A stretch of 64,000 nt of DNA from Bacteroidales bacterium UBA3623 (GTDB lineage Bacteria > Bacteroidota > Bacteroidia > Bacteroidales > UBA932): positions 35,797-99,796 of the forward strand of contig DFLI01000051.1 of the NCBI GenBank assembly GCA_002373715.1. The letters run 5' to 3'. A model generated the notes under the pieces. It was given only the letters and a program-made list of their open reading frames with translations, was not told the origin of the DNA and ran no database searches. Each line of letters opens with the position of its first letter. Position 1 is the stretch's first letter. Position numbers and translations under genes: made by a program. Shown piece by piece: positions 12,248 to 31,722 of this stretch.

Positions 12248-13000
12248 CTAGTTTTTAATAAAGGTAAGGCGCTCCCAGATGCAGCGCGGGATAAGACGCC
12301 ATAGGGCGGTGATAAGACGGAAACGCCCGTCAAAAATGATAATGCGCCTCTTGCGGCGAAGACCTTTTAGGATATATTCTGCCGCTTTTTCTGCCGATAT
12401 AAGGCGGGGATATTTCCGGTCCATATTCAGGATCTCGGTCTCTACGAAGCCCGGGCGAATGTCGGAAAAAAGAATGGGCCACTTCTGCATATGTGCCAGT
12501 TGGGAAAGGGCCGACAGGTAAGTAATCTGCATTTTCTTGGAAGCAGAATAGGAGGCCGATACACCCAGCCCTGCCGTTCCTGCCACAGAGGTAACCACGC
12601 CTATGAGCGCTTTGTGCTTGGCATCATAAGCGCCGGAAGCCAGCACATAACGGATGAAATGGGAAACCATCCTGGCCATGCCCACGCAATTGGTTTCCAT
12701 GGTCCAGGTTTCTATTACCTCGTTCATGTCCGGGTTCTGGCGCCCCACGCCGGAAACGTGCAGGAAAAGGTCTGGAGTGCCGGTTTTGGCCAGCAACGCA
12801 TCCAGGGCCTCCGTGGCCTCCGGCTTGGTGATATCCATAACCTGCGGAAAAATAGTTCCCTCGGGAAATTGGGCCGATAATTCTTGCAACAGCGCCTCCC
12901 GCCTTCCGGCGGCGCCCACCACCCATCCATCCCGGGCCAGCCTTTCGGCCAACGCCCTTCCGATGCCCGAGGTGGCTCCTATGATGATGGCGGTTTTCAT
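12248..13000 (-). CDS. SDR family NAD(P)-dependent oxidoreductase
   Basis: IIIGATSGIG Rossmann motif, YSASK catalytic motif, IRPGFVET. Confidence 0.92.
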   Translation of the reverse strand: MKTAIIIGATSGIGRALAERLARDGWVVGAAGRREALLQELSAQFPEGTIFPQVMDITKPEATEALDALLAKTGTPDLFLHVSGVGRQNPDMNEVIETWTMETNCVGMARMVSHFIRYVLASGAYDAKHKALIGVVTSVAGTAGLGVSASYSASKKMQITYLSALSQLAHMQKWPILFSDIRPGFVETEILNMDRKYPRLISAEKAAEYILKGLRRKRRIIIFDGRFRLITALWRLIPRCIWERLTFIKN

Positions 13001-13090
13001 TCCGTTCAAGCGTTATCTGCTGGCAAATATACTTCTTTTATTCAAAAATGTTATGTCGGTACGGAATAATGATTATCTTTGGGATAAATA

Positions 13091-19345: not shown

Positions 19346-20791
19346 ATGAAAAGGAAACTGATCACCGCGCTGGCGCTCATCCTGGCAGTAGCCTGTGGAA
19401 AGACTCCTGACCCCGATCCCATTCCCGACAACAAGGACGACGGATTGTATGACCTTTCGCAAGTGACTGTCATGGACTCCGGCACCATCTCTCTTGAGCA
19501 GTTCTATCAGGGACTGCTGCAAGAGTCTTCATCCTCCAACGATGATTACGACCCCGCCCTGTACGACTATTATTCCAGCCTGCTGAAACAAGCGCAAGGC
19601 ACCCAGACCAAGGCAGAGAGCGGCAGCATGAGCTATGCCTGGACCATTCTCCGTTACACTACAAAGGATGTTTCCGGCAAAAACATAGAGTGCTCCGAAG
19701 CGCTGGTGTGGCCTATCAGCTCGAACGGTTCACAGCAAGCAAGAAACGTACTGATTGGCTGTCATGTCACCATCACCGGAGACGAGCAGCGCCCCAGCAA
19801 TTTTACCAACGGGGGCGTTTCCAATGACGTAAATTTGCTGGCCACCTTTGCCAGCCCGCTCTCCCAGAGCGCGTTGGTGATCCTGCCCGACTACGAAGGG
19901 TACGGTGCCACCCGCAACCACCATCATCCCTATTGCAACCGCGAAGTAACATCCCTACAGGTAGTGGATGGTGCCAAGGCGGGCATTGCCTGGTATGAGA
20001 AAGAAAAGAATAAACTGGCCGATGGCTGGAAGTCGGTGGCTGTTGGCTATTCTCAGGGTGGCGCAGCAGCGGCCGGAGTGTATCGCTATTGCCGCGAACA
20101 TAGCGAGAGCGGCCTTCGCCTGGCCGGTGCCATCTGCGCAGACGGGCCGTACGACCTTATGGCAACGCTGACTGAATACGCCCATAGCGGACAGTTGTAT
20201 ATGCCCATTGCCGCTGCCCTTATCCTGAAGGGTGCAATAGATACCAACCCCCGCCTCAAGGAGTTGGGCTGCACTTATGCAGACTTCTGCTCACCGGAGT
20301 TCATAAGAACGGGAATCTTCGACTGGCTTAAGGACAAGGAGGTAGCCGGGAACAAAATGAACAAACAACTGCTCAGCGCCCTTGGCTTGGATCCGCAGGG
20401 ATACGCTCCCATTGAGATGTGCTTCAAGCCTTCCCTGCTGGCCTATTTCAAGGACGGCAGCGTGGACGGAGATATATCGGCCGATAAACTCCAGGCCCTC
20501 CGGCAGTGCCTGGAGGAGAATTCCCTCTCCTACGGCGGATGGATGCCCCCGCAGGCCTCCGGCCTCACCTTCTTCCATTCAACCACAGACGATGTGGTGC
20601 CCCCGATTAACCTCTACACCATGGATGACCAGTGGGCCAGCCAGAGCGACCATTATAGCACCTACCTTTACACCTCCTCCGCCCTGGGCTCCCATACCAC
20701 TACCGGCAACATGTTCTTTATCCAGTTCTGTTCCGGTTACATTGACGACATCCTGAACGGCAAATGGTCTTCCCAGCATAAGAAATTATAA
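19346..20791 (+). CDS. Secretory lipase-like alpha/beta hydrolase lipoprotein
   Basis: AVAC lipobox; PDYEGYG, HPY, GYSQGG, GPYD, HSTTDDVVP. Confidence 0.82.
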   Translation: MKRKLITALALILAVACGKTPDPDPIPDNKDDGLYDLSQVTVMDSGTISLEQFYQGLLQESSSSNDDYDPALYDYYSSLLKQAQGTQTKAESGSMSYAWTILRYTTKDVSGKNIECSEALVWPISSNGSQQARNVLIGCHVTITGDEQRPSNFTNGGVSNDVNLLATFASPLSQSALVILPDYEGYGATRNHHHPYCNREVTSLQVVDGAKAGIAWYEKEKNKLADGWKSVAVGYSQGGAAAAGVYRYCREHSESGLRLAGAICADGPYDLMATLTEYAHSGQLYMPIAAALILKGAIDTNPRLKELGCTYADFCSPEFIRTGIFDWLKDKEVAGNKMNKQLLSALGLDPQGYAPIEMCFKPSLLAYFKDGSVDGDISADKLQALRQCLEENSLSYGGWMPPQASGLTFFHSTTDDVVPPINLYTMDDQWASQSDHYSTYLYTSSALGSHTTTGNMFFIQFCSGYIDDILNGKWSSQHKKL

Positions 20792-20805
20792 TGATCACAA
20801 AGAAT

Positions 20806-21804
20806 ATGAAAAAGAACTTTTTTGGCAAAGCATTGATTCTTGCCGCAACAGCGCTGATGGCGCTTGCATGTACAAAGGATAACACCCAGAAGAAAGTAGC
20901 GGTACTGCTTCCGGACGCCAACACAATAGACCGTTGGGCCACCGACAAGGCCAATCTGGAGACGGTAATGGGTAAGTACGGCTTCCAAACCACTTTCTAC
21001 ATTGCCCCGGAAACAGCCGCCGGAGCAGAGAAGCAGGTGGAACAGCTTCGGGAAGCCCTCCGCGCCGGAGCCAAGTACATTGTGCTAACGGCCATTGACT
21101 ATCAGAAGATTAACGAGTCCGGGCTGCTTGAGCAGTATCCCGACGTAAAGGTAGTTTGCCACGACCGTTTTGTTCTTGACAACTCCCGCATAGCTTATAT
21201 TTCTTCCACCGACACCAAGGAAATCGGCCGTATGCAGGCCATGTTCCTGCTCAATCATTTCCATTCCTCCGGTGCGGCTACCATGACCATCGAATTCCTG
21301 GAGGGCCCCGAGACCGACATCAACGCCAAGGATTACTTCGAGGGCGCCATGGAGCTTCTCAAGAAATACATCGACAACAATCAACTGGTAGTCAAGAGTG
21401 GCAAGAAAACATATGCTCAGGTAAAGGCCGACAGCTGGGACACTGCCGACGGCCGCAAAGCCATGCAGGACCGCCTTACCAGTTATGGACTTGGTGAACG
21501 CCCGGATATGATTCTTGCCGCCATCGACAACCTGGCTCAGGGAGCCATTGAGGCGCTGGAAGAAGCAGGAATAACGGACATGCCGGTGATCACCGGTCAG
21601 GACAACACCGCCATGGCACAGAGTAATATCAAGCACGGCAAACAGGCCATGACCATAGACAAGAACCTGCAGGATATGGCCTACAACACAGGCCTGATTG
21701 TTAACAACCTAGTCTCCCATTCCCCCATCCAAACCAGCCAGAGCATCTCCGGAATCCCGGTACTCTACTCCAAGATTACCCTGATGACCGTAGACAGCTA
21801 TTAA
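20806..21804 (+). CDS. Sugar-binding periplasmic lipoprotein (XylF/ChvE-like)
   Basis: ALAC lipobox; DRWATD, HDR, GRMQA, GPETDINA, ITGQD, QAMTIDK; alternative start 20791. Confidence 0.85.
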   Translation: MKKNFFGKALILAATALMALACTKDNTQKKVAVLLPDANTIDRWATDKANLETVMGKYGFQTTFYIAPETAAGAEKQVEQLREALRAGAKYIVLTAIDYQKINESGLLEQYPDVKVVCHDRFVLDNSRIAYISSTDTKEIGRMQAMFLLNHFHSSGAATMTIEFLEGPETDINAKDYFEGAMELLKKYIDNNQLVVKSGKKTYAQVKADSWDTADGRKAMQDRLTSYGLGERPDMILAAIDNLAQGAIEALEEAGITDMPVITGQDNTAMAQSNIKHGKQAMTIDKNLQDMAYNTGLIVNNLVSHSPIQTSQSISGIPVLYSKITLMTVDSY

Positions 21805-21823
21805 AAATCAACAGTGTACGCAC

Positions 21824-21967
21824 ATGAACAAAGAAAAGATAAACAAATTGGATTATGAGTCCCCACAGCTAATTGTGATGGAAATCCAACCGGGCCATTC
21901 GTTGCTGCAGGCCAGCAAAGACGATTATATCGACGGCGGGGACGATACCTGGGGAATAACTGTATAG
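21824..21967 (+). CDS. 47-aa small peptide with YxxP leader (candidate RiPP-like precursor); not in ORF track
   Basis: MNKEKINKLDYESPQLIVMEIQPGHSLLQASKDDYIDGGDDTWGITV*; fills intergenic gap and stops 7 bp before next gene. Confidence 0.75.
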   Translation: MNKEKINKLDYESPQLIVMEIQPGHSLLQASKDDYIDGGDDTWGITV

Positions 21968-21974
21968 GGAGGGA

Positions 21975-22826
21975 ATGAAGATGAGAAAGAATAATCTGTT
22001 TGTGCTACTTGCCGCCGCCATGTCGGCCGGCACTGTCTTCTACTCTTGCAACCGATTTGAAGAACAACTGCAGCCGCAAGAGCCACAGGAGCAGGGAACA
22101 TCTGCGTACACCCTGAAGGTGAAAGCCGAAAAAGGAACGGCCACCAAAGCCTTGACCGATGAAGGGGTTACCTTGAAAGCCTCCTGGGCAGCGGGAGATG
22201 ATGTAGAAGTGTACAATGTGGGTGGGGATCACCTTGGAACGCTGGTTCCTGCAGTGAGCAGTACCTCTTCGACAACCTTGTCGGGCAACTTGACAACAGC
22301 CCCTGCGATGGATGAAGTCCTAACGCTCAAATTCCGTTCGAACAACTATGCCACCCAGCAGGGAACTTTGGAGTATATAGCAGCCAACTGCGACTACGCT
22401 ACGGCAGAGGTCACCGTGACGGCGGTTAGTGGTAATAGCATTGAAACCACTCCGGCCCATTTCGTGAGCCAGCAGGCCATTGTGAAATTTACGCTCAGGA
22501 ATTCCGGCGATACGGGCGATTTGAACGTAACTCAGTTGCTGGTTAATGATGGCACCAACACCTATACCATAACCCCGGTCTCTGCAACCCCCAGTGTGCT
22601 CTATGTGGCCATTGAGGGTTTCTCTGAGCAAACCGTCACCATGACGGCCAACACCGGGAGCGCATATTATGACAGGACCAAGGCCGATGTCACGTTCGAG
22701 AATGGAAAATTCTATCGGATAAAAGCCCTGATGACGCAACGAACGTTGAAAAGTATCTCCATCAGTGGACTTGAACCGGTTCCCATGTATTACTATGGCG
22801 GGGCTCTTCAGATTAATGCACGCTAA
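21975..22826 (+). CDS. Fimbrillin/Mfa1-like (type V pilin) lipoprotein, possibly C-terminally truncated
   Basis: FYSC lipobox; ATKAL processing motif, WAAGDDVEVY, Y..Q.GTL.YI...CDYATA, QAIVKFTL, ENGKFY. Confidence 0.7.
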   Translation: MKMRKNNLFVLLAAAMSAGTVFYSCNRFEEQLQPQEPQEQGTSAYTLKVKAEKGTATKALTDEGVTLKASWAAGDDVEVYNVGGDHLGTLVPAVSSTSSTTLSGNLTTAPAMDEVLTLKFRSNNYATQQGTLEYIAANCDYATAEVTVTAVSGNSIETTPAHFVSQQAIVKFTLRNSGDTGDLNVTQLLVNDGTNTYTITPVSATPSVLYVAIEGFSEQTVTMTANTGSAYYDRTKADVTFENGKFYRIKALMTQRTLKSISISGLEPVPMYYYGGALQINAR

Positions 22827-22852
22827 AACGTGAAACTTTGAGTGAACGAAAG

Positions 22853-25800
22853 ATGAAAAAGATAAAATTCATTCTTGCTGCATTGCTCTTTTTGGTGGGA
22901 GCACAGTTGGGACAGGCCTATACCATCAACGACCGCGGTATCAAAGGCAGCGGCACGCTTGAAGACCCCTATCTTATCAATTCGGCTGAGGACTGGAAAA
23001 TTATGTCCATTTTTCAGTCCGGCAATGTGGCTGGAGCCAGCGATATAAACCTTACGGGCAAATATGTCAAGCTTACGGCCGATATCAGCGTTGGGGAATA
23101 TATGTTGGGTGCAGATAACCCGTTCCGGGGCATTTTTGACGGAAACGGCCACACGGTCACGTACCGGTTCAAAATCCCTACAGACCATGTGCCGGTATTA
23201 TATGATTATAGGGCCCCCTTCCGTTTTCTGGGGGATGGCGCCGTCATCAAGAATCTGCACGTCACGGGCCTTATAGAGTCCTATCAAAAATACAACGCCG
23301 GCTTGGTGAGTGAGGTGAAAGAGGATGCCACGGTGACCATCAGCAACTGTTGGGTGAGTATGACACTTGACGAATATGGCCCCAGGGACGCTGACGCCAC
23401 CAACGGCGGAATTGTCGCCCACACGTGCAAGGGGTCCGTTACAACCATTACGGACTGCCTCTTTGATGGCGTATTTAAGACGGGCGGTGGTAATTACAGT
23501 GACTATTGCGGCGGCCTGGTGGGTTATAAAAACGGGAAACTGGTCCTGATCAATTGCCTTTTCAGACCTTCCAGCATAGACATCACAACCACCAGCCATT
23601 GCAAGACATTGGCCCGCTATAACGACACCAAGAACCTGGTTTTCGAAAACTGCTACTATACCCAGACCTTTGGCGAGGCCCAAGGTAGGGACGCCAGCGG
23701 TATGGCCGAAAACGAGTTGTTGGGAAGACTGGGCAGCAACTGGCAGATGTCCGCCGGGGGCAAGGTGGTCCCGGCTACAATTGTAGTGAACCCGTTCTAT
23801 GGAAGCGGTGACTCGGAGTCGGATCCCTATCTCATCTCGTCGCCCGGCAACTGGAACTATCTGGCCGAAAAGGTGAGGACGGGAAGCACTTACAGCGGTA
23901 AATTCTTCAAACTGGTCACGGACATTACGGTCAATACCATGGTGGGCGTGAGCAACAGCAAGTACTTTGGCGGCACCTTTGACGGTGGCGGGAACACGCT
24001 TGTCTTCAACTATACTTCCGTGCAGGAGTATTGCGCTCCGTTCCGGTACATCCACGGTGCCACCATCAAGAACCTGCAAACTGCCGGCATCATCAATGCC
24101 TCGGCCAAGTATGCCGCAGGTATTGCCGGCTATGCCCAGAATATAAACCATATTACTTCCTGCAGGAGCAGTGTTGTCATCATGAGCAGCATCGATGGCG
24201 ACGGAAGTCACGGTGGCCTGGTGGGTGAAGTGGTGAAGGGAAACACGGACGTTTATTTTGAAGATTGCCTTTTCGACGGTATCTTCTCAGGAGCGAAGAC
24301 CGAGAAGTGGGGCGGCTTCGTGGGCTGGAACGAGAATGGGCCGGACAGCCATTTCTATCATTGCCTGTTCAATCCTTCCTCCGTGGGTGTTGACACGGAC
24401 GGCTGCTATACGTATGCCCGGAGAAGTGATTCTGATGACATTCACTTCTACGAGAACAAAAAGAGTTACTATACGTACCTGCTGAATAATGCGCAGGGCT
24501 GGGATGGTGGGGGGAAGACTGCCGCAGAGCTGGTTGCTCTCCTCGGCGCCAACTGGGAAGTGGTTGCCGATCGCGCGGTGCCCAAGTTTACCAAATCACA
24601 AGACATCAAGAATTTCCCGGGCAATGGTACGCCGGAAGACCCGTATCTCATCGCAGAACCGGCCCATTGGCTTAAGCTTGAATCTGAGTTGGCGAAAGGA
24701 TTCACTTATGACGGATATTACTTCAAGCTGGTGGCGGATTTGACCATCAGCCGAATGGCGGGTCTTGATACGAAGCCTTTCTCCGGAGTATTTGATGGAG
24801 ACGGGCATATCCTCACCCTGAACCTTACCGGGACCAGCGAGATCAAATATGTCGCTCTCTTCGGCTGTCTGGACGGTGCTACCATCAAGAACCTTCACTT
24901 GGCTGGAAACGTGACGTCCGATCAGTATCCTGCGGCAGTGGCAGCCTATGTCAGCAGCAATGGTACTCACAGGTCCAGTACCATTGTAAACTGCGAAAAC
25001 TCGGCCGCCATCCATTCCACCTCTTCCGGTAATGTTTACGCCGGGTCCTATGTGGGGCGTGTTGTAGCTATGAACTATGATGCGGATCTCATCATTGACG
25101 CTTGTTCTTTTCTGGGAAGCATTGATCTGAGTGCGGGGAAAAGCGGAGGTGGTTTTATTGGAAAGGTTGAATCAAGTGGCTCCGTCCGTGTGAAATACTG
25201 CCTGTTTACCCCGTCTTCCCTTTCCATCAAAGAAATTGATGACAGCGATGGAAAGTTTTATATGTTTGGACCTAATCTGAGTGCCAGCAGCAGTTGCTAT
25301 AATTCGCTGGCGCTCGATTATCGGTCTCCGACCGGCAATAAGCCGTTGGTCACTTCTCAGCAGGGTCAATTAATTCGTACGGTCAGCGGTGGAGATTATA
25401 TTACCGTGGCCATAGATGGAACGCCAACGGAACACAACGTCAGCGGAATTACCACCTATAAGAACGGAAATGATGATCGTCCAGGCTTCGTTTATGGTAA
25501 TGAGATCTGTGGTGGAGAAAACTTCTATTTGTATCTTCTCCTGAGCTATGGGGGCGATAAGGAAACCTTCTACGAGTACGTTGCCAATCACGGCACCCTT
25601 TCGGGCTCTGAGAAGACCTGTATCAATGATCACTATGAACATCGTATGGCTGATGCTAATACAGTGATCAGCGCCTCCGGTGTTGTGGTCCTCCGGGATG
25701 ATGTGAACAACAGTGAGGTCATAACGCAGATGGCCGGGCAGTCCAAAAACGTGACGGTTGGCCGTACGTTTGTCCACGGTGCGTGGAACAGCATCTGTTT

Positions 25801-26218
25801 GCCGTTCAACGTTTCTGCCGCTACTGTCAGTAAGGTATTTGGGGACGCTACTCAGCTGAGACGATTGAGCAGTTCTGAATTTACGGATGGGGCACTTTCC
25901 CTTTCTTTTGAAAGTATTGAGGTGTCGCTGGCAGGTACTATCATCATAGAGGCCGGAAAACCTTACATTATCAAGCCTTCCAAAGCTGCAGACGTAGTGA
26001 ATCCTGTCTTCGGGGGTGTAACCATCGTGAACAGTTCCACGCCCACTGTAACAGACGTGGCAACCTTCACTCCGGTTATCAATGTGAAGACCCTCCCTGC
26101 GCGCGATATGACCATCCTCTTCATTACAGGTGACGGGCAGTTGTCCTTCCCGCTCAATAACGAGAGCATCAAGGGCTTCCGCGCGTACATCCTGCTCACC
26201 GGCGCCGCCGCCCAATAG
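22853..26218 (+). CDS. Large secreted repeat protein (GLUG/ZmpB-like beta-helical repeats), putative adhesin
   Basis: Signal peptide; three repeats starting GSG...DPYLI...W..L...G.Y.KL..DI...F.G.FDG.G; C-terminal WNSICLPF/EAGKPYII/KGFRAY domain; start ATG 22853. Confidence 0.75.
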   Translation: MKKIKFILAALLFLVGAQLGQAYTINDRGIKGSGTLEDPYLINSAEDWKIMSIFQSGNVAGASDINLTGKYVKLTADISVGEYMLGADNPFRGIFDGNGHTVTYRFKIPTDHVPVLYDYRAPFRFLGDGAVIKNLHVTGLIESYQKYNAGLVSEVKEDATVTISNCWVSMTLDEYGPRDADATNGGIVAHTCKGSVTTITDCLFDGVFKTGGGNYSDYCGGLVGYKNGKLVLINCLFRPSSIDITTTSHCKTLARYNDTKNLVFENCYYTQTFGEAQGRDASGMAENELLGRLGSNWQMSAGGKVVPATIVVNPFYGSGDSESDPYLISSPGNWNYLAEKVRTGSTYSGKFFKLVTDITVNTMVGVSNSKYFGGTFDGGGNTLVFNYTSVQEYCAPFRYIHGATIKNLQTAGIINASAKYAAGIAGYAQNINHITSCRSSVVIMSSIDGDGSHGGLVGEVVKGNTDVYFEDCLFDGIFSGAKTEKWGGFVGWNENGPDSHFYHCLFNPSSVGVDTDGCYTYARRSDSDDIHFYENKKSYYTYLLNNAQGWDGGGKTAAELVALLGANWEVVADRAVPKFTKSQDIKNFPGNGTPEDPYLIAEPAHWLKLESELAKGFTYDGYYFKLVADLTISRMAGLDTKPFSGVFDGDGHILTLNLTGTSEIKYVALFGCLDGATIKNLHLAGNVTSDQYPAAVAAYVSSNGTHRSSTIVNCENSAAIHSTSSGNVYAGSYVGRVVAMNYDADLIIDACSFLGSIDLSAGKSGGGFIGKVESSGSVRVKYCLFTPSSLSIKEIDDSDGKFYMFGPNLSASSSCYNSLALDYRSPTGNKPLVTSQQGQLIRTVSGGDYITVAIDGTPTEHNVSGITTYKNGNDDRPGFVYGNEICGGENFYLYLLLSYGGDKETFYEYVANHGTLSGSEKTCINDHYEHRMADANTVISASGVVVLRDDVNNSEVITQMAGQSKNVTVGRTFVHGAWNSICLPFNVSAATVSKVFGDATQLRRLSSSEFTDGALSLSFESIEVSLAGTIIIEAGKPYIIKPSKAADVVNPVFGGVTIVNSSTPTVTDVATFTPVINVKTLPARDMTILFITGDGQLSFPLNNESIKGFRAYILLTGAAAQ

Positions 26219-26239: not shown

Positions 26240-26296
26240 TTTTTACAAACATTTGTGGCGTTTTGACAGAAGGATAGATAGGAGTATATATCTTTG
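26240..26296 (+). promoter_or_regulatory. Putative activator site plus -7 box, shared with 16057-16113
   Basis: TTTTTACAAACATTTGT.GGCGTTTTGAC, with TATCTTTG at 26289. Confidence 0.5.
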
Positions 26297-27413: not shown

Positions 27414-28052
27414 TTATTTTAGTAGCTGGGCAAAATCATCTATAACAGAATCGGCTCCGGCGGCCAGGAGTTCTGCGCGATTGGAATTGCCGTAGCTTAC
27501 GCCGCAGGTGCGGGCCCCGGCGCCGGCACCCATTCTAATGTCTACAGGCATATCCCCTACTACCAGGGCTTCATCGGCCTGATAGCCCAATTCGCGAAGA
27601 GTTTTTAGCACGGGCTCCGGGTCCGGCTTGGCCTTGCTCACATTGTCTCCTCCCAGCACATAGGAGAAGTACTGCGCCACGCCCATTTCCTGCAGGAATT
27701 CGTTCAGGGACTGGTTGGAGCGGGAAGAAGCTACGGTGAGTACATAGCCTTTTTCATGCAGCACCGCCAGTGTTTCCTTTACATGCGGGAACAGCACGGG
27801 TAAATACTTATCCTTAAGGGAATAGAACACTTCCCGGCATTTGACGGCCCAGGCGGGAATTTCTTCCTCCTGCACTCCCGGGAACAGCGTGCGGATGCAG
27901 CCCGCCATGGGAAGGCCAATCACAGCCGTAATCTGTTCCGGAGTAGGCACGGGATATTGCATCTGCCGGGCCAGTTCCTGGTTGGTTTCTACAATGAGGC
28001 GGTTGGTGTCGGCCAGGGTGCCGTCAAAGTCAAAGATATAGAGCTTAATCAT
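27414..28052 (-). CDS. HAD-family phosphatase (Gph-like)
   Basis: FDFDGTLAD, KPDPEP, VGDMPVDI motifs; 6 bp downstream of ABC gene. Confidence 0.92.
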   Translation of the reverse strand: MIKLYIFDFDGTLADTNRLIVETNQELARQMQYPVPTPEQITAVIGLPMAGCIRTLFPGVQEEEIPAWAVKCREVFYSLKDKYLPVLFPHVKETLAVLHEKGYVLTVASSRSNQSLNEFLQEMGVAQYFSYVLGGDNVSKAKPDPEPVLKTLRELGYQADEALVVGDMPVDIRMGAGAGARTCGVSYGNSNRAELLAAGADSVIDDFAQLLK

Positions 28053-28058
28053 AGATTT

Positions 28059-29678
28059 TCAAACCTTTACCACGTGGTCTGTGAAGCTGGCCGTGGCCTC
28101 CCGGTGGGAGATAATGAGGATGGTTTTGCTGCCGTGATAACGGGAGTGGATGTTCTTCAGCATGCGCTCTTCAGTGTTGGCATCCAGGGCCGATGTGCTC
28201 TCGTCCATGAGTAGCACGGTGCCGGGGTGCAGCAGGGCGCGGGCCACGGCAATTCGCTGAGCCTGGCCTTCGGAAAGGCCGCTGCCCACTTCCCCGCAAG
28301 GGGTGTCCAGTCCTTTGGGCAGCTTGAAGACAAAATCGGCCACAGCGGTTTCCAGGGCTTCCCGCATCTGCTCTTCGGTAGCCGATGGCGCCGCCAGCTG
28401 CAGGTTGCTGCGGATGGTGCCGCTAAGGAGGCTGTTCCCCTGCGGAACATAGAGGAAATTGCCGCGCAGCGCCACCCCGCTGGGCTGTCCGTCCAGGGTT
28501 ACTGTGCCCTCGGAGGGCTGAAGAAGTCCCATAACCAGCCTTAGGAGCGTACTCTTACCAATGCCCGTAGGGCCGGCAATGAGGGTGGTGGCGCCCGCCG
28601 GGAAAGTGCAGGAGAAATCCTTCAGAATGATTCTTTCACTGCCCGGGTAGCTATAGGTTACGTGAGAGACTTCAATTTGAGGGGCCTTATCCAGCAGCAC
28701 CGGCGGCACGCTGGGTTCCTCTTCCAGTTCCTGCAGTTCCTGCAGACGCTCTATGGAGGTGAGGGCGGTAATAACGGCAGGCACCTGGCGGCCAAATTCG
28801 GCTATGGGCCGCTGCACCTGACCCACCAGCTGCAGGAAGGCTGTCATCATACCATAAGTAACCGTTCCGTGCAGGATGCCGAATACACCCCAGAGGAAAG
28901 CGGCGGCGTGGCCGGCCTGGAAACCCAGGAACATGCATCCGCGCGCCACGGCGTTAAAATTGAGACGTTTGCGGGTATTGTCTTCTACGTCTTTCTGCAG
29001 CCAGCCAAACTTCTCCAGCACGCGTTCTACATTGGTGAGCGTGAGCACCAGCACGCGGTGCTGCAGGCTCTCCTGCATAACCTGCTGGAGTTCGCTCTCG
29101 CGGGCGCGAATGGCAGCCATAATCTTGCGAAGCTGCTTGAAAAAGAGTTTGGAGCCAAACACGGCCGAGAACATGAGGATGAGCAGCACCCACAACAGAT
29201 TCGGCGCCAGCATAAGCAGATAAGTGGAGGCGGCCACCAGCTGTAGCAGGGTTACCACCAGCCCGGGAATACGGGCCGATAGCAGCTCTGCCACCACGCG
29301 GATGTCTTCCTCCAGACGGTTCACCGTGTCTCCGGAGAGGAAACGGTCACGGCCGTCCCAGCGGCTTCTTAAAACATGGCCGAAGAGCTGGGCGCGAAGG
29401 ATGTTCTGGGTTTTTACCTGGCAGTAGCTCTCCCACCAGCCGGAAACCAGGAAGGCGGCCACTTGCAGCACCAGCACCCCCACGAAAATCCAGATAGCGG
29501 GCCAGAGCGGGAAGCTGCTTTGCCCCGTGGCAATGTCCACCAGCTGTTTACTGGCCCATACGAAAGCCAGGGAAGCGGCAATGCGGACCAGGCCCACGGC
29601 CAGGCTCACTACCATCCTCCATCGGACGGGAGCGCTCATGCCCCAGAGGGCTTTCATGCTTTCCCTGAAGCTAATCAT
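28059..29678 (-). CDS. ABC exporter, fused permease/ATPase
   Basis: About 6 TMs; GPTGIGKST Walker A, LSEGQAQR signature, LLMDE Walker B, SHR H-loop. Confidence 0.93.
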   Translation of the reverse strand: MISFRESMKALWGMSAPVRWRMVVSLAVGLVRIAASLAFVWASKQLVDIATGQSSFPLWPAIWIFVGVLVLQVAAFLVSGWWESYCQVKTQNILRAQLFGHVLRSRWDGRDRFLSGDTVNRLEEDIRVVAELLSARIPGLVVTLLQLVAASTYLLMLAPNLLWVLLILMFSAVFGSKLFFKQLRKIMAAIRARESELQQVMQESLQHRVLVLTLTNVERVLEKFGWLQKDVEDNTRKRLNFNAVARGCMFLGFQAGHAAAFLWGVFGILHGTVTYGMMTAFLQLVGQVQRPIAEFGRQVPAVITALTSIERLQELQELEEEPSVPPVLLDKAPQIEVSHVTYSYPGSERIILKDFSCTFPAGATTLIAGPTGIGKSTLLRLVMGLLQPSEGTVTLDGQPSGVALRGNFLYVPQGNSLLSGTIRSNLQLAAPSATEEQMREALETAVADFVFKLPKGLDTPCGEVGSGLSEGQAQRIAVARALLHPGTVLLMDESTSALDANTEERMLKNIHSRYHGSKTILIISHREATASFTDHVVKV

Positions 29679-29941
29679 TCCGCTACGCCTTGTTCTTTCC
29701 AGCTGTCGGCCAACTTTTGAGAATCGGCCAATGCTACATCGGCCGATACGTCATATTTTTCCTGCAGGAGGGCGGCCAGGTCTTCCACCATGAAGTCTTT
29801 CCCCTTCACCTGTTCCCACAGCCAGGCAGCACTGGCATTGAGGGATAGCAGTTTGTTAAAGTTCACCTGGGCCAGGCCTTCGCCCACCACCACGTTTTCT
29901 CCGCAAATGGTGCGGAGGATGAATCCATCTTTAATTCTCAT
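29675..29941 (-). CDS. PqqD-family protein / RiPP recognition element (RRE)
   Basis: 88 aa: MRIKDGFILRTICGE.VVV...LNASAAWLWE...EDLAALL.EKYDV...A..D...L..W...G; start ATG 29941. Confidence 0.88.
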   Translation of the reverse strand: MRIKDGFILRTICGENVVVGEGLAQVNFNKLLSLNASAAWLWEQVKGKDFMVEDLAALLQEKYDVSADVALADSQKLADSWKEQGVAE

Positions 29942-30357
29942 TGTATTCTTCTGTATATACCCAGCAGGATGCGCCTGAGGGGCAGCAGGTGCTTCCACAC
30001 CTTTCCCTTGGAGGGTTTAAACGTTTTATCTCCTCTTACTATGGCCACCACCGTACCTATCACGTCTGCCTTTCCGCAGGTTTCCAGCTGGTCCAGGTTG
30101 CCGTCTCCCATGAGGGTGAGGCGGTTGCGGTTTTCCAGCATAACGCGGTGCATTACATATCGGTCTTCTAAGCGGGCCAGCACTATGTCTCCCTCTTCCA
30201 CGTCCGGCAGCCAGCGCAGCACCACGCTGTCTCTGCCTTCCTTGATAAAGGGCAGCATGCTGTTTCCTTTGGGGGCCAGGGTTACGTCCCGGCCTTCTGC
30301 TAACAGGGAGGCTGCTTCTTCCAGCAGCACTTCGTTGGGGAGGGTTAGCTTAGTCAT
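29938..30357 (-). CDS. S24/S26-family peptidase (Ser-His variant)
   Basis: KGNSMLPF, GDIVLA, YVMHRV, MGDGN motifs; start ATG 30357 overlapping upstream stop. Confidence 0.85.
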   Translation of the reverse strand: MTKLTLPNEVLLEEAASLLAEGRDVTLAPKGNSMLPFIKEGRDSVVLRWLPDVEEGDIVLARLEDRYVMHRVMLENRNRLTLMGDGNLDQLETCGKADVIGTVVAIVRGDKTFKPSKGKVWKHLLPLRRILLGIYRRIQ

Positions 30358-31234
30358 GGACGGTTTGGTAGCATAAGTGGGCGGCCTCCGCGTTGGGGAG
30401 GCAGTCCAGGGAATAGCAAGGGACGGTGGCCACCAAAGCTTCCAGCGTGCGGTGCCAGCCGTCGGATAATTGTTTAAAAGGCCGGAAGGCCGATGCGGAA
30501 GCCATGAGCGAAGCATAGGCTTCCAGCTTGTTCAGCCGCCGGATGGCGTTATGAGGGGCCTGCTGCAGGCGCACCACGGCCCCAACAGGGACGTCTTTGG
30601 CCTTGTAACAAGGGGTTTTCCCGCTCCAGGGACTGCCGTACACGCGGATGCTGCCATCTGGCAGAAGGCGCAGGATGGGGTTGTCGTCGTTCAAGAGTTC
30701 CGTTTCCGGGATGTTTTCCAGCCAAAGGCGGCTGTGGGTGCTTTTGCCCGTTCCGCTGCGGCCCAGGAAAAGGTATCCCTTCCCTGCCTGCATAACCACG
30801 GAGGAATGCATTTCCAACGCACCCTGATGGGCGGTGGAAAAGGCAAACAGCAGCATAAGGGCATTGTTAAGTCCGAATTGAGGGTCTGTTCCGGTGAGGA
30901 AAAGCTGTGCCTCAGAAAAGTCTTTCTGCGCCTTGAGCCATGCGGCTACGGGCGCTTCGGGCAGCGGACGCATGCGGAAGACATAGCCTTCCGCCAGATC
31001 CCAGATGGCAATCTCCGGAAAACCGGGGCCATCCTGCGTACAGAAGAGCGGCGCTCCCGCCGGCTCTTCCCACTTCCCTACCTGCTCTATGCTAAAGAGA
31101 GGCCCCCGATCAAGCCGGGGGTGACGGTCGCCGTCCTGCATCTCAAATGGCCGAAGATTCTCCATGCCTTCCAGCAGGGCTTCATCGGCCCTTATCCGGA
31201 ATGCGAATCCCGCCACTTGATAGCACTTTAGCAT
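30350..31234 (-). CDS. HPr-kinase/PEPCK-type P-loop kinase-like protein
   Basis: MHSS, FLGRSGTGKST Walker A, LLNDD, YGSPWSGK; start ATG 31234. Confidence 0.8.
   Translation of the reverse strand: MLKCYQVAGFAFRIRADEALLEGMENLRPFEMQDGDRHPRLDRGPLFSIEQVGKWEEPAGAPLFCTQDGPGFPEIAIWDLAEGYVFRMRPLPEAPVAAWLKAQKDFSEAQLFLTGTDPQFGLNNALMLLFAFSTAHQGALEMHSSVVMQAGKGYLFLGRSGTGKSTHSRLWLENIPETELLNDDNPILRLLPDGSIRVYGSPWSGKTPCYKAKDVPVGAVVRLQQAPHNAIRRLNKLEAYASLMASASAFRPFKQLSDGWHRTLEALVATVPCYSLDCLPNAEAAHLCYQTVHD
31096..31126 (-). repeat. CGTC-type REP palindrome inserted in frame in kinase gene
   Basis: Minus strand cgtcacccccggcttgatcgggggcctctct; 25/31 identical to 59224-59254; encodes RHPRLDRGPL. Confidence 0.75.
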
Positions 31235-31302
31235 TTTTTTTAAACTTTTATACAAAGATAACACATTTTCTTTTGTATATTTGTCAAGATTCACAGCACG
31301 TT

Positions 31303-31722
31303 ATGAAGAAAATCGTTTCGTCCCTGCTTCTTCTGGCCCTGCTTCTTCCCCAGGCAAGGCTTCACGCGCAACAATTGCACAAGATCACCTTTACTCCCCA
31401 ATGGACGGCCCAGTCCCAATTTGCCGGCTATTACATAGCCCTGGGCATGATGGACGGCATGGTATTCCAGGGAGAAAGCATCGACAACATTCGCGAGTGG
31501 CAGTTCCTGGCCTACACCGACGGCCTCAACGAAGCTGAGAACCCGGAGTACGAGCTCTTCGGCAACGACCGCCTCATTGAGATTATGGACACCCTGGGCA
31601 GCGAAAATTCTGCCACCGTAATCCGGGTGCTGCAGGAAGAAGTGGAGAAGCACCGTAACGGCGCCACTCCCAGCGACGACCTCACTCTCCTTTGCCTCAG
31701 ACTAACCAAAAATAAGAAATAA
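31303..31722 (+). pseudogene. Chimeric deletion remnant: NMT1/THI5-like solute-binding N-terminus fused to SpoIIE phosphatase C-terminus
   Basis: Signal peptide + FTPQWTAQSQFAGYYIA joined at ALG to LGMMDG...YTDGLNEAEN...FG.DRL...SDDLTLL. Confidence 0.75.

Follow-up and report, generated by a model that had tools for sequence, protein, structure and literature searches.

The window (the whole 64,000-nucleotide stretch of DNA analysed here) carries on its plus strand, 19 nt past the stop of a Peripla_BP_4 gene, a 47-codon frame preceded by a same-strand run of genes (AraC, Cache-SpoIIE, PBP-C13 peptidase fusion, lipase-like and Peripla_BP_4) and followed by the genes of a lipoprotein and of a large secreted protein. 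The original prediction had described this frame as an unannotated YxxP-leader peptide gene coupled to a fimbrillin-like gene, and had proposed its product as a substrate of an RRE/S26/kinase/ABC operon 5.4 kb away. That operon exists, on the minus strand at 28059-31234, and the features that bear on the proposal are the following.

21824-21967, plus strand: 47-aa peptide gene, with a leader of about residues 1-28 followed by an acidic tail
21968-21980, plus strand: junction between peptide stop and lipoprotein start, with the Shine-Dalgarno (SD)-like GGAGGGA (21968-21974)
21975-22826, plus strand: p283, a 283-aa lipoprotein with a signal peptide, Cys25 and a predicted type V pilin-like two-domain fold
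22838-26218, plus strand: p1126, about 1120 aa, secreted (signal peptide but no lipobox), without a match in Pfam; third gene of the cassette
27414-28052, minus strand: HAD phosphatase, 6 nt past the exporter gene
28059-29678, minus strand: MsbA-like ABC exporter (ABC_membrane and ABC_tran) with no peptidase domain
29675-29941, minus strand: discrete RRE (PqqD-like) of 88 aa, with a profile match to a lasso RRE and a weak NCBIfam PqqD match
29938-30357, minus strand: S24/S26-like (SipW/SEC11-like) serine peptidase with invariant Ser34, His71 and Asp86
30350-31234, minus strand: HprK-like kinase with the P-loop GRSGTGKS; first gene of the operon

The peptide gene and the cassette behind it

The translation of 21824-21967 is, letter for letter, the peptide originally predicted. 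It is devoid of a signal peptide and consists of a Lys-rich N-terminus, Y11-E-S-P14 (21854-21865), the strand QLIVMEI, the motif LLQAS, whose Ser31 is encoded at 21914-21916, and an acidic tail, KDDYIDGGDDTWGITV, that includes Trp43. Since the Bacteroidetes -7 box (TAnnTTTG) is absent from the plus strand from 19837 to 25261, the peptide gene lacks a canonical promoter of its own. The same box is over-represented in the window as a whole (39 occurrences vs 23 expected), and two of its plus-strand copies, at 13074-13081 and 26289-26296, lie just upstream of the AraC gene (13091) and of a gene for a 357-aa protein (26328).

The peptide stop codon (TAG, 21965-21967) is separated from the nearest ATG, at 21975, by the 7 nt given in the original prediction. 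The lipoprotein may start at this ATG or, more likely, at 21981, 13 nt past the peptide stop, because orthologous junctions keep GGAGGGA about 9 nt ahead of the latter position; the heptamer is retained in the junctions of L105 and L107, whose flanking sequences differ. Such tight coupling recurs throughout the family. Among 37 distinct members with sufficient downstream DNA, an ORF invariably starts between -20 and +39 nt from the peptide stop (37/37), and in 36 instances this ORF, starting within 40 nt of the stop, has the signal-plus-Cys N-terminus of a lipoprotein; only one downstream ORF does not encode a lipoprotein. A strict lipobox was passed by 33 of the 37, and three more have signal peptides ending in FYSC (this window) or TNC, against a background in which a loose lipobox pattern is found in 16% of the long ORFs of the home genome. 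An SD-like 5-mer is present in about 12 of the 37 junctions vs 8.6% of the long ORFs of the home genome, an approximately fourfold enrichment. Ribosomes of this bacterial group largely ignore Shine-Dalgarno-like sites.

The description of the downstream neighbour as fimbrillin-like is supported by its signal peptide, by Cys25 and by structural comparison. The AlphaFold2 model of p283 (pLDDT 78.6) gave as first Foldseek matches 3r4r, 4eps, 4jg5, 4h40 and Mfa3 (5nf4), with a probability of 1.00 and TM-scores of only 0.3-0.38, and all top matches belong to the type V pilin family of Bacteroidales; no Pfam match was found for p283. Among p283 homologues, T57, A59 and L60 are invariant and K58 nearly so; T57-K58-A59-L60, which follows the first strand, is by analogy a candidate maturation cut site. 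With a lipoprotein signal, a predicted two-domain fold and a Lys site after the first strand, p283 has the features expected of a type V pilin and in this resembles the type V pilus subunits (FimA/Mfa; 3r4r, 4eps, 5nf4). The locus differs from type V pilus loci by its upstream peptide gene: we know of no described type V pilus locus with such a gene, and full-text searching of the literature retrieved no article dealing with small ORFs upstream of genes for type V pilins.

The cassette made up of the peptide, p283 and p1126 genes recurs in three other contigs, each time in different surroundings. Homologues of p1126 (about 90% identity in L105 and in L106, 37-41% for that of L107) invariably come after a p283 homologue. 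We note that, between the contigs in which p1126 is about 90% identical (window vs L105 and L106), p283 is 68-74% and the peptide 53% identical, such that the peptide and p283 genes evolve much faster than p1126.

In the family, the lipoproteins share an N-terminal region with the pattern ...T[KR][TA]...W..GD.[IV], and their C-terminal parts vary, consisting of LRR_5, Metallophos plus Laminin_G_3, DUF4886 or no recognizable domain; one of them matches Mfa_like_1 (E 5.9e-6). The peptide tail NLEPIDGGDDPDIDW is always paired with lipoproteins that start with ...ASCSIQE.DF...FYASFEQP. Tail and lipoprotein family thus travel together, a pattern that linkage alone could account for.

Two other arrangements deserve mention. 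In L022 (10001-18854), three successive peptide-lipoprotein pairs, whose lipoproteins carry Metallophos, Laminin_G_3 and DUF4886 domains, directly follow the SusC/SusD genes of a polysaccharide-utilisation locus. In L101 (24-4201, plus strand; genome G270), a 1336-aa protein combining Peptidase_C10 and T9SS sorting domains is encoded directly before a peptide gene, after which there is no lipoprotein gene.

A family of small acidic peptides and the selection acting on it

The 47-codon frame is a real gene, belonging to a large family of small acidic peptides of ruminant-gut Bacteroidales. Homologous ORFs, which the original prediction had proposed to seek upstream of fimbrillin genes, are abundant: a profile built from 24 family members (A2) matched 95 of the 121 genomes of the genus, with a maximum of 16 matches per genome and three places in the home genome (C84, C56 and C36). 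In a library of 1.84 billion proteins, the same profile retrieved 394 clusters (50% identity) at E<=0.001. The best 150 of these 394 clusters are all 36-126 aa long and include no fused forms, indicating that the peptide is not part of a larger protein. Those members named in the sources are entered as 'hypothetical protein' of Bacteroidales MAGs, their loci coming from buffalo and cattle gut, and the five loci retrieved by a locus search with a narrow alignment all belong to ruminant Bacteroidales MAGs. Pfam and NCBIfam scans of the 24 members found no model, no PDB chain was matched by the A2 profile, and a literature search returned no paper describing this peptide family or system in Bacteroidales. 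Searching 60 relatives with the single peptide yielded mostly marginal matches and some small frames with the same layout; about half of these matches were false (lipoyl synthase and other long frames), leaving the profile search as the only informative one.

The shared motif consists of Y-x-x-P, a beta-strand, Glu, h-L-x-Ser and an acidic tail that usually ends in Trp. In an alignment of 202 members numbered from the Tyr as position 1, Tyr is found in 97%, Pro at position 4 in 100% and Glu at position 14 in 81%; positions 6-10 alternate between V/I and E/R, position 17 is F or L, and position 18 is L, C or A. Ser occupies position 20 in 80% of the members and is found somewhere in positions 19-22 in 196 of the 202. 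The tail has a median length of 14 residues, 31% of which are Asp or Glu and 1% Lys or Arg, and an aromatic residue occurs among the last five in 189 of the 202 members (Trp in 162). Across the whole family the conserved portion is the leader and not the tail; in the largest subfamily, the tail SFL[QA]SNLEPIDGGDDPDIDW is nearly invariant and the head variable. Two other readings of the motif were dropped: that of a double-glycine leader (IDGG|DD), since GG is not conserved family-wide, and that of h-L-C-x-S as a lipobox, since Cys is found in only 28% of the members and the -1 residue is wrong.

Selection on the tail codons, together with the size of the family and the exact translation, confirms the peptide gene as predicted. 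Across 21 tail codons, comparisons between four members revealed 9-12 synonymous vs 3-4 replacement differences (about 3 to 1), an excess that denotes constraint on the amino acids and led us to reject an overlapping DNA or RNA signal as the cause of tail conservation. In the L105 orthologue, which sits beside a p283 homologue of 73% identity, the frame persists although only 60% of the nucleotides are identical, and YExPQ, LLQAS, DY..GG and the W are retained, as they are in the 51%-identity orthologue of L107.

The minus-strand operon and its association with peptide genes

The operon genes are joined by overlaps of 4-8 nt (4 nt between the exporter and RRE genes), and a TAnnTTTG box at 31253-31260 on the minus strand lies just upstream of the kinase start (31234). 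The kinase displays weak matches to ScmC, HprK_rel_A and the P-loop region of PEPCK_ATP. In 24 orthologues of the peptidase, Ser34, His71 and Asp86 are invariant and no Lys is, a pattern characteristic of signal peptidases of the SipW/SEC11 type; the predicted structure adopts a clan SF fold matching LexA, lambda cI, UmuD and human SEC11C (7p2q), and, judged by spacing, the His falls roughly at the place of the catalytic Lys of LexA (37 residues from Ser to His, and 37 from Ser119 to Lys156). A profile of 27 RRE orthologues matched the lasso RRE TfuB1 (6jx3) with an E-value of 1.3e-5, with no match to LppB in the PDB; the single RRE and single peptidase sequences gave no useful PDB match. None of the operon genes of the window matched cyclase or B2 peptidase families in library scans, and no gene of either kind was identified by inspection of the gene content of operons elsewhere. 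The HAD phosphatase gene was considered as a member of the system and dropped, since in the other inspected genomes of the genus it does not adjoin the operon; its product probably has no part in the system. A 191-aa frame (31147-31722, plus strand), oriented divergently from the kinase operon, encodes a signal peptide and, of a SpoIIE/PP2C domain, just the C-terminal half; it may represent a truncated gene or a wrong start.

This gene content recalls the LPP clusters of Bacillota, which encode a precursor (LppA), an RRE (LppB), an HprK-like kinase (LppK), an SpI-like peptidase (LppS), an NTP transferase (LppN) and an exporter (LppD) and were described as restricted to that phylum (Popov et al. 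2026, PMC13381572). Four of the five core genes are present here, namely those of the HprK-like kinase, the discrete lasso-type RRE, the signal-peptidase-like Ser/His/Asp peptidase and the MsbA-like pump, and both systems are without a lasso cyclase; the peptidase is likened to LppS through its triad and clan SF fold. The fifth, NTP_transf_5 (PF14907), was not found in the home genome (84% complete) but is present in many Bacteroidales operons, including those of other families. Throughout the genus the genes are arranged as kinase, peptidase, RRE, (NTP_transf_5), ABC, with the kinase gene beside that of the peptidase, and LPP-like operons in which the order varies occur in many families of Bacteroidales (L115-L127, L100, L101). 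Some kinase matches are paralogues without the other operon genes. Two of these, in G130 and G139, lie 0.25-2.8 kb from a divergent peptide-lipoprotein cassette (L095 6211-6369, minus strand; L096 10561-10812, plus strand), with no peptidase, RRE or ABC genes nearby.

The co-occurrence of peptide and operon that was anticipated in the original prediction is apparent in the genus, where 84 genomes have both the peptide and the peptidase, 11 the peptide only, 12 the peptidase only and 14 neither (odds ratio 8.9; Fisher 1.6e-5, a p-value overstated by the kinship of the genomes); the 11 peptide-positive genomes with no S26-like match, and the 12 with the peptidase only, do not conform to it. In an order-wide sample of 201 genomes, with at most two per family, the peptidase was found in 24 (12%) and the peptide in six, five of which have the peptidase; with the genus itself set aside, the peptidase is present in three of four peptide-positive genomes, vs 11%. 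The two kinds of genes also tend to be neighbours. The surroundings of 40 kinase genes (749 kb) contain seven peptide genes vs about one expected from a genome-wide density of about 1.4 per Mb; one of the 40 loci had been picked with its peptide gene known, and five peptide genes vs about one remain when it is left out.

The closest association was found in a genome of another family, G224, where two peptide-lipoprotein pairs are followed by the kinase, peptidase, RRE, NTP_transf_5 and ABC genes, contiguously and on one strand, and where both profile matches of the genome sit in this locus. The sole profile match of G270 lies about 7-10 kb from the operon, and in G317 and G265 a peptide gene is found 5-9 kb from it. 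The peptide genes near the operons of these last three genomes have no lipoprotein gene behind them, which fits an ordinary precursor that was later coupled to lipoprotein genes in some lineages. Conversely, the operons of the genus appear to have no precursor of their own: a search of the operon strand over about 1.5 kb on either side of 21 of them brought up no small ORF with a YxxP motif, and a six-frame profile scan revealed no family member immediately adjacent to a full operon. Co-occurrence, proximity, the contiguity in G224 and operons without their own precursor are all consistent with the peptide being a substrate of the RRE operon, as originally proposed; the 5.4-kb spacing seen in the window is not general, most peptide genes being far from any operon. 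G083 (91% complete), one of the 11 genomes with the peptide only, has 16 peptide genes and a lone RRE gene (L109 8956-9222, minus strand) flanked by glycoside-hydrolase genes; at this completeness, neither the kinase nor the S26-type peptidase gave a match in it.

The original prediction had further called for a model of the peptide with the RRE and the peptidase. A fold model of the peptide and RRE only reached an ipSAE of 0.41 vs 0.02 for the best of three controls, with contacts that agree between runs to at least 93% and a partner pLDDT of at least 51. Of 80 solved complexes, 58 attained the ipSAE mark applied, as did two of 110 mismatched pairs, but at an ipSAE of 0.60 or below the calibration includes only seven of the 80 solved complexes and both of the mismatches. 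The model therefore lends weak support to binding between RRE and peptide, and its pass may only reflect likeness to solved RRE-leader complexes.

A proposed precursor pathway, alternative readings and known systems

We propose, with a probability of roughly 0.6, that the peptide is a trans-encoded precursor of an LPP-like pathway operating in a new phylum, in which dispersed precursors each head a pilin-like lipoprotein operon. The discrete RRE would bind the YxxP motif of the leader and the strand that follows; the HprK-like kinase would phosphorylate the conserved Ser of the family (Ser31 here); the S26-type peptidase, through its Ser/His/Asp residues, would cut off the leader a few residues before that Ser; and the MsbA-like pump would export the core, which is short and acidic and contains Trp, through the inner membrane. 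A single set of enzymes would serve numerous precursors whose genes are dispersed across the genome. Each of these genes would, in this lineage, form the first cistron of a surface-lipoprotein operon (here that of the peptide, p283 and p1126), with a few bases, often including an SD-like site, between it and the lipoprotein gene. The conserved Ser as phosphate acceptor is suggested by the largest subfamily, whose tail NLEPIDGGDDPDIDW is free of Ser, Thr and Tyr, leaving this Ser as the sole candidate acceptor within the tail or adjoining it.

The precursor itself supports the comparison with LPP. The LppA leader reads YxxPxVLxHQxIxFETxxS, with the Ser at position 19 from the Tyr; the SpI-like peptidase cleaves it after T-1, and does so only if the RRE presents it, and the kinase places several phosphates on Ser3 of the core (PMC13381572). 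Likewise, the peptides described here have an N-terminal YxxP, a strand, a conserved Ser about 19-20 residues past the Tyr and a variable C-terminus. A cut at LLQA|S, releasing a Ser-initiated core of 17 aa as originally envisaged, would differ from that of LppA, which keeps the Ser as core residue 3. If the kinase acts on these peptides, the conserved Ser probably stays on the product, with the cut falling before it; since the residues preceding the Ser differ (E-x-x-[FL]-[LC]-[QA]-S here vs F-E-T-x-x-S in LppA), the exact bond cut in LppA is not transferable.

Other differences from LPP lie in the phylum (Bacteroidota here vs Bacillota) and in the precursors. The YxxP precursor of LPP is encoded in its cluster, whereas the gene described here is 5.4 kb off on the other strand, and peptide and operon genes are contiguous only in G224; here, most precursor genes lie in trans to the operon, numbering as many as 16 per genome, each heading a surface-lipoprotein operon. 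The core would be about 15-25 aa long, very acidic and end in Trp, as opposed to the 45-aa core of LPP. What is probably new, then, is an LPP-like system in another phylum with a genomic arrangement of its own, that of dispersed, lipoprotein-coupled precursors.

Because the tail varies with the lipoprotein family, we infer that the exported core would act on or with its own lipoprotein. One tentative and rather doubtful extension of this idea is that the phosphorylated core is a matched ligand of the co-encoded pilin-like lipoprotein, perhaps a removable cap or donor-strand mimic that times maturation or polymerisation. Were this to be the case, the way in which gut Bacteroidales assemble their pili and surface enzymes would be under the control of a RiPP pathway.

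Other explanations of the small gene need to be weighed against the precursor reading. That it is a chance open frame in an operon spacer, as its shortness and missing annotation might suggest, has a negligible probability and was ruled out on account of hundreds of homologues, the preservation of the frame, the synonymous excess and the fixed place before lipoprotein genes. A cis-acting role deserves more attention: the level of the lipoprotein could be set, through coupled re-initiation at the SD-like site, by translating the small ORF or by a stall at the conserved acidic ...W-stop end, with no link to the RRE operon. Such a leader cistron would be in keeping with the -20 to +39 nt gap found in all 37 junctions, with the fourfold enrichment in SD-like motifs and the conservation of GGAGGGA among orthologues, with the lack of a canonical promoter box directly upstream of the peptide gene, and with the conserved C-terminal ends of the known arrest peptides SecM, TnaC and MifM. 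It accounts poorly, however, for constraint at the peptide level over the whole length, including an RRE-type YxxP that stalling does not need, and for the members near operons of other families that have no lipoprotein gene downstream, and it leaves co-occurrence and contiguity with the operon unexplained; we consider it improbable, and it could in any event coexist with a precursor role.

A role of the peptide as an unmodified small partner (assembly factor, cap or donor-strand mimic) that binds the co-encoded pilin-like lipoprotein independently of the kinase, RRE and peptidase appears unlikely as well. The pairing of tail subfamilies with homologous lipoproteins, the prediction of the leader as a beta-hairpin-like pair of strands and the 16 copies in G083, a genome with no kinase or peptidase match, are all compatible with this scenario. 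Yet with the lipoprotein folding outside the cytoplasm, a peptide devoid of a signal peptide would require a dedicated exporter; moreover, the part conserved family-wide is the leader rather than the tail, and there are stand-alone members without a lipoprotein. Neither this reading nor that of a leader cistron excludes the precursor reading, with which both are compatible.

Two further classes of peptides invite comparison with the proposed precursors. The original prediction had assigned the YxxP motif to a lasso-type leader; the motif is indeed present and the RRE profile matches TfuB1, but the closest model is the linear LPP precursor. A lasso precursor would have a Thr at the penultimate position of its leader; the family logo (202 members) shows no conserved Thr ahead of the Ser, and lasso_cyano gave a marginal match in only one of the 24 members (E 0.23). 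Phosphorylated lasso peptides of the paeninodin type have an ABC exporter in common with the present system, in whose inspected operons neither a macrolactam cyclase nor a B2 cysteine peptidase came to light; the product here would be linear. In prochlorosins, one maturase acts on the products of many dispersed precursor genes with a conserved leader and a variable core, and the chemistry is that of a lanthionine synthetase. The system described here shares with them the single enzyme set, the scattered precursor genes and the leader-core layout, and differs from them by the coupling of each precursor to a partner gene and by its enzymes.

If the precursor reading is correct, a class of RiPPs described in 2026 as limited to Bacillota is widespread in Bacteroidales (peptidase gene in 24 of 201 genomes), with precursors wired one-to-one to surface lipoproteins that include pilin-like proteins and enzymes of polysaccharide-utilisation loci. 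This wiring would provide a first concrete lead to the purpose of such peptides, extend the gene inventory of rumen and gut genomes by hundreds of unannotated members, and point to an unusual use of SD-like sites in a group that largely ignores them.

Finally, we note that in L124 a 61-aa ORF (12253-12438, minus strand) containing DYHKPQIRKIRL and a proline-rich tail directly follows the ABC gene, and may be a cis-encoded precursor of a different type.
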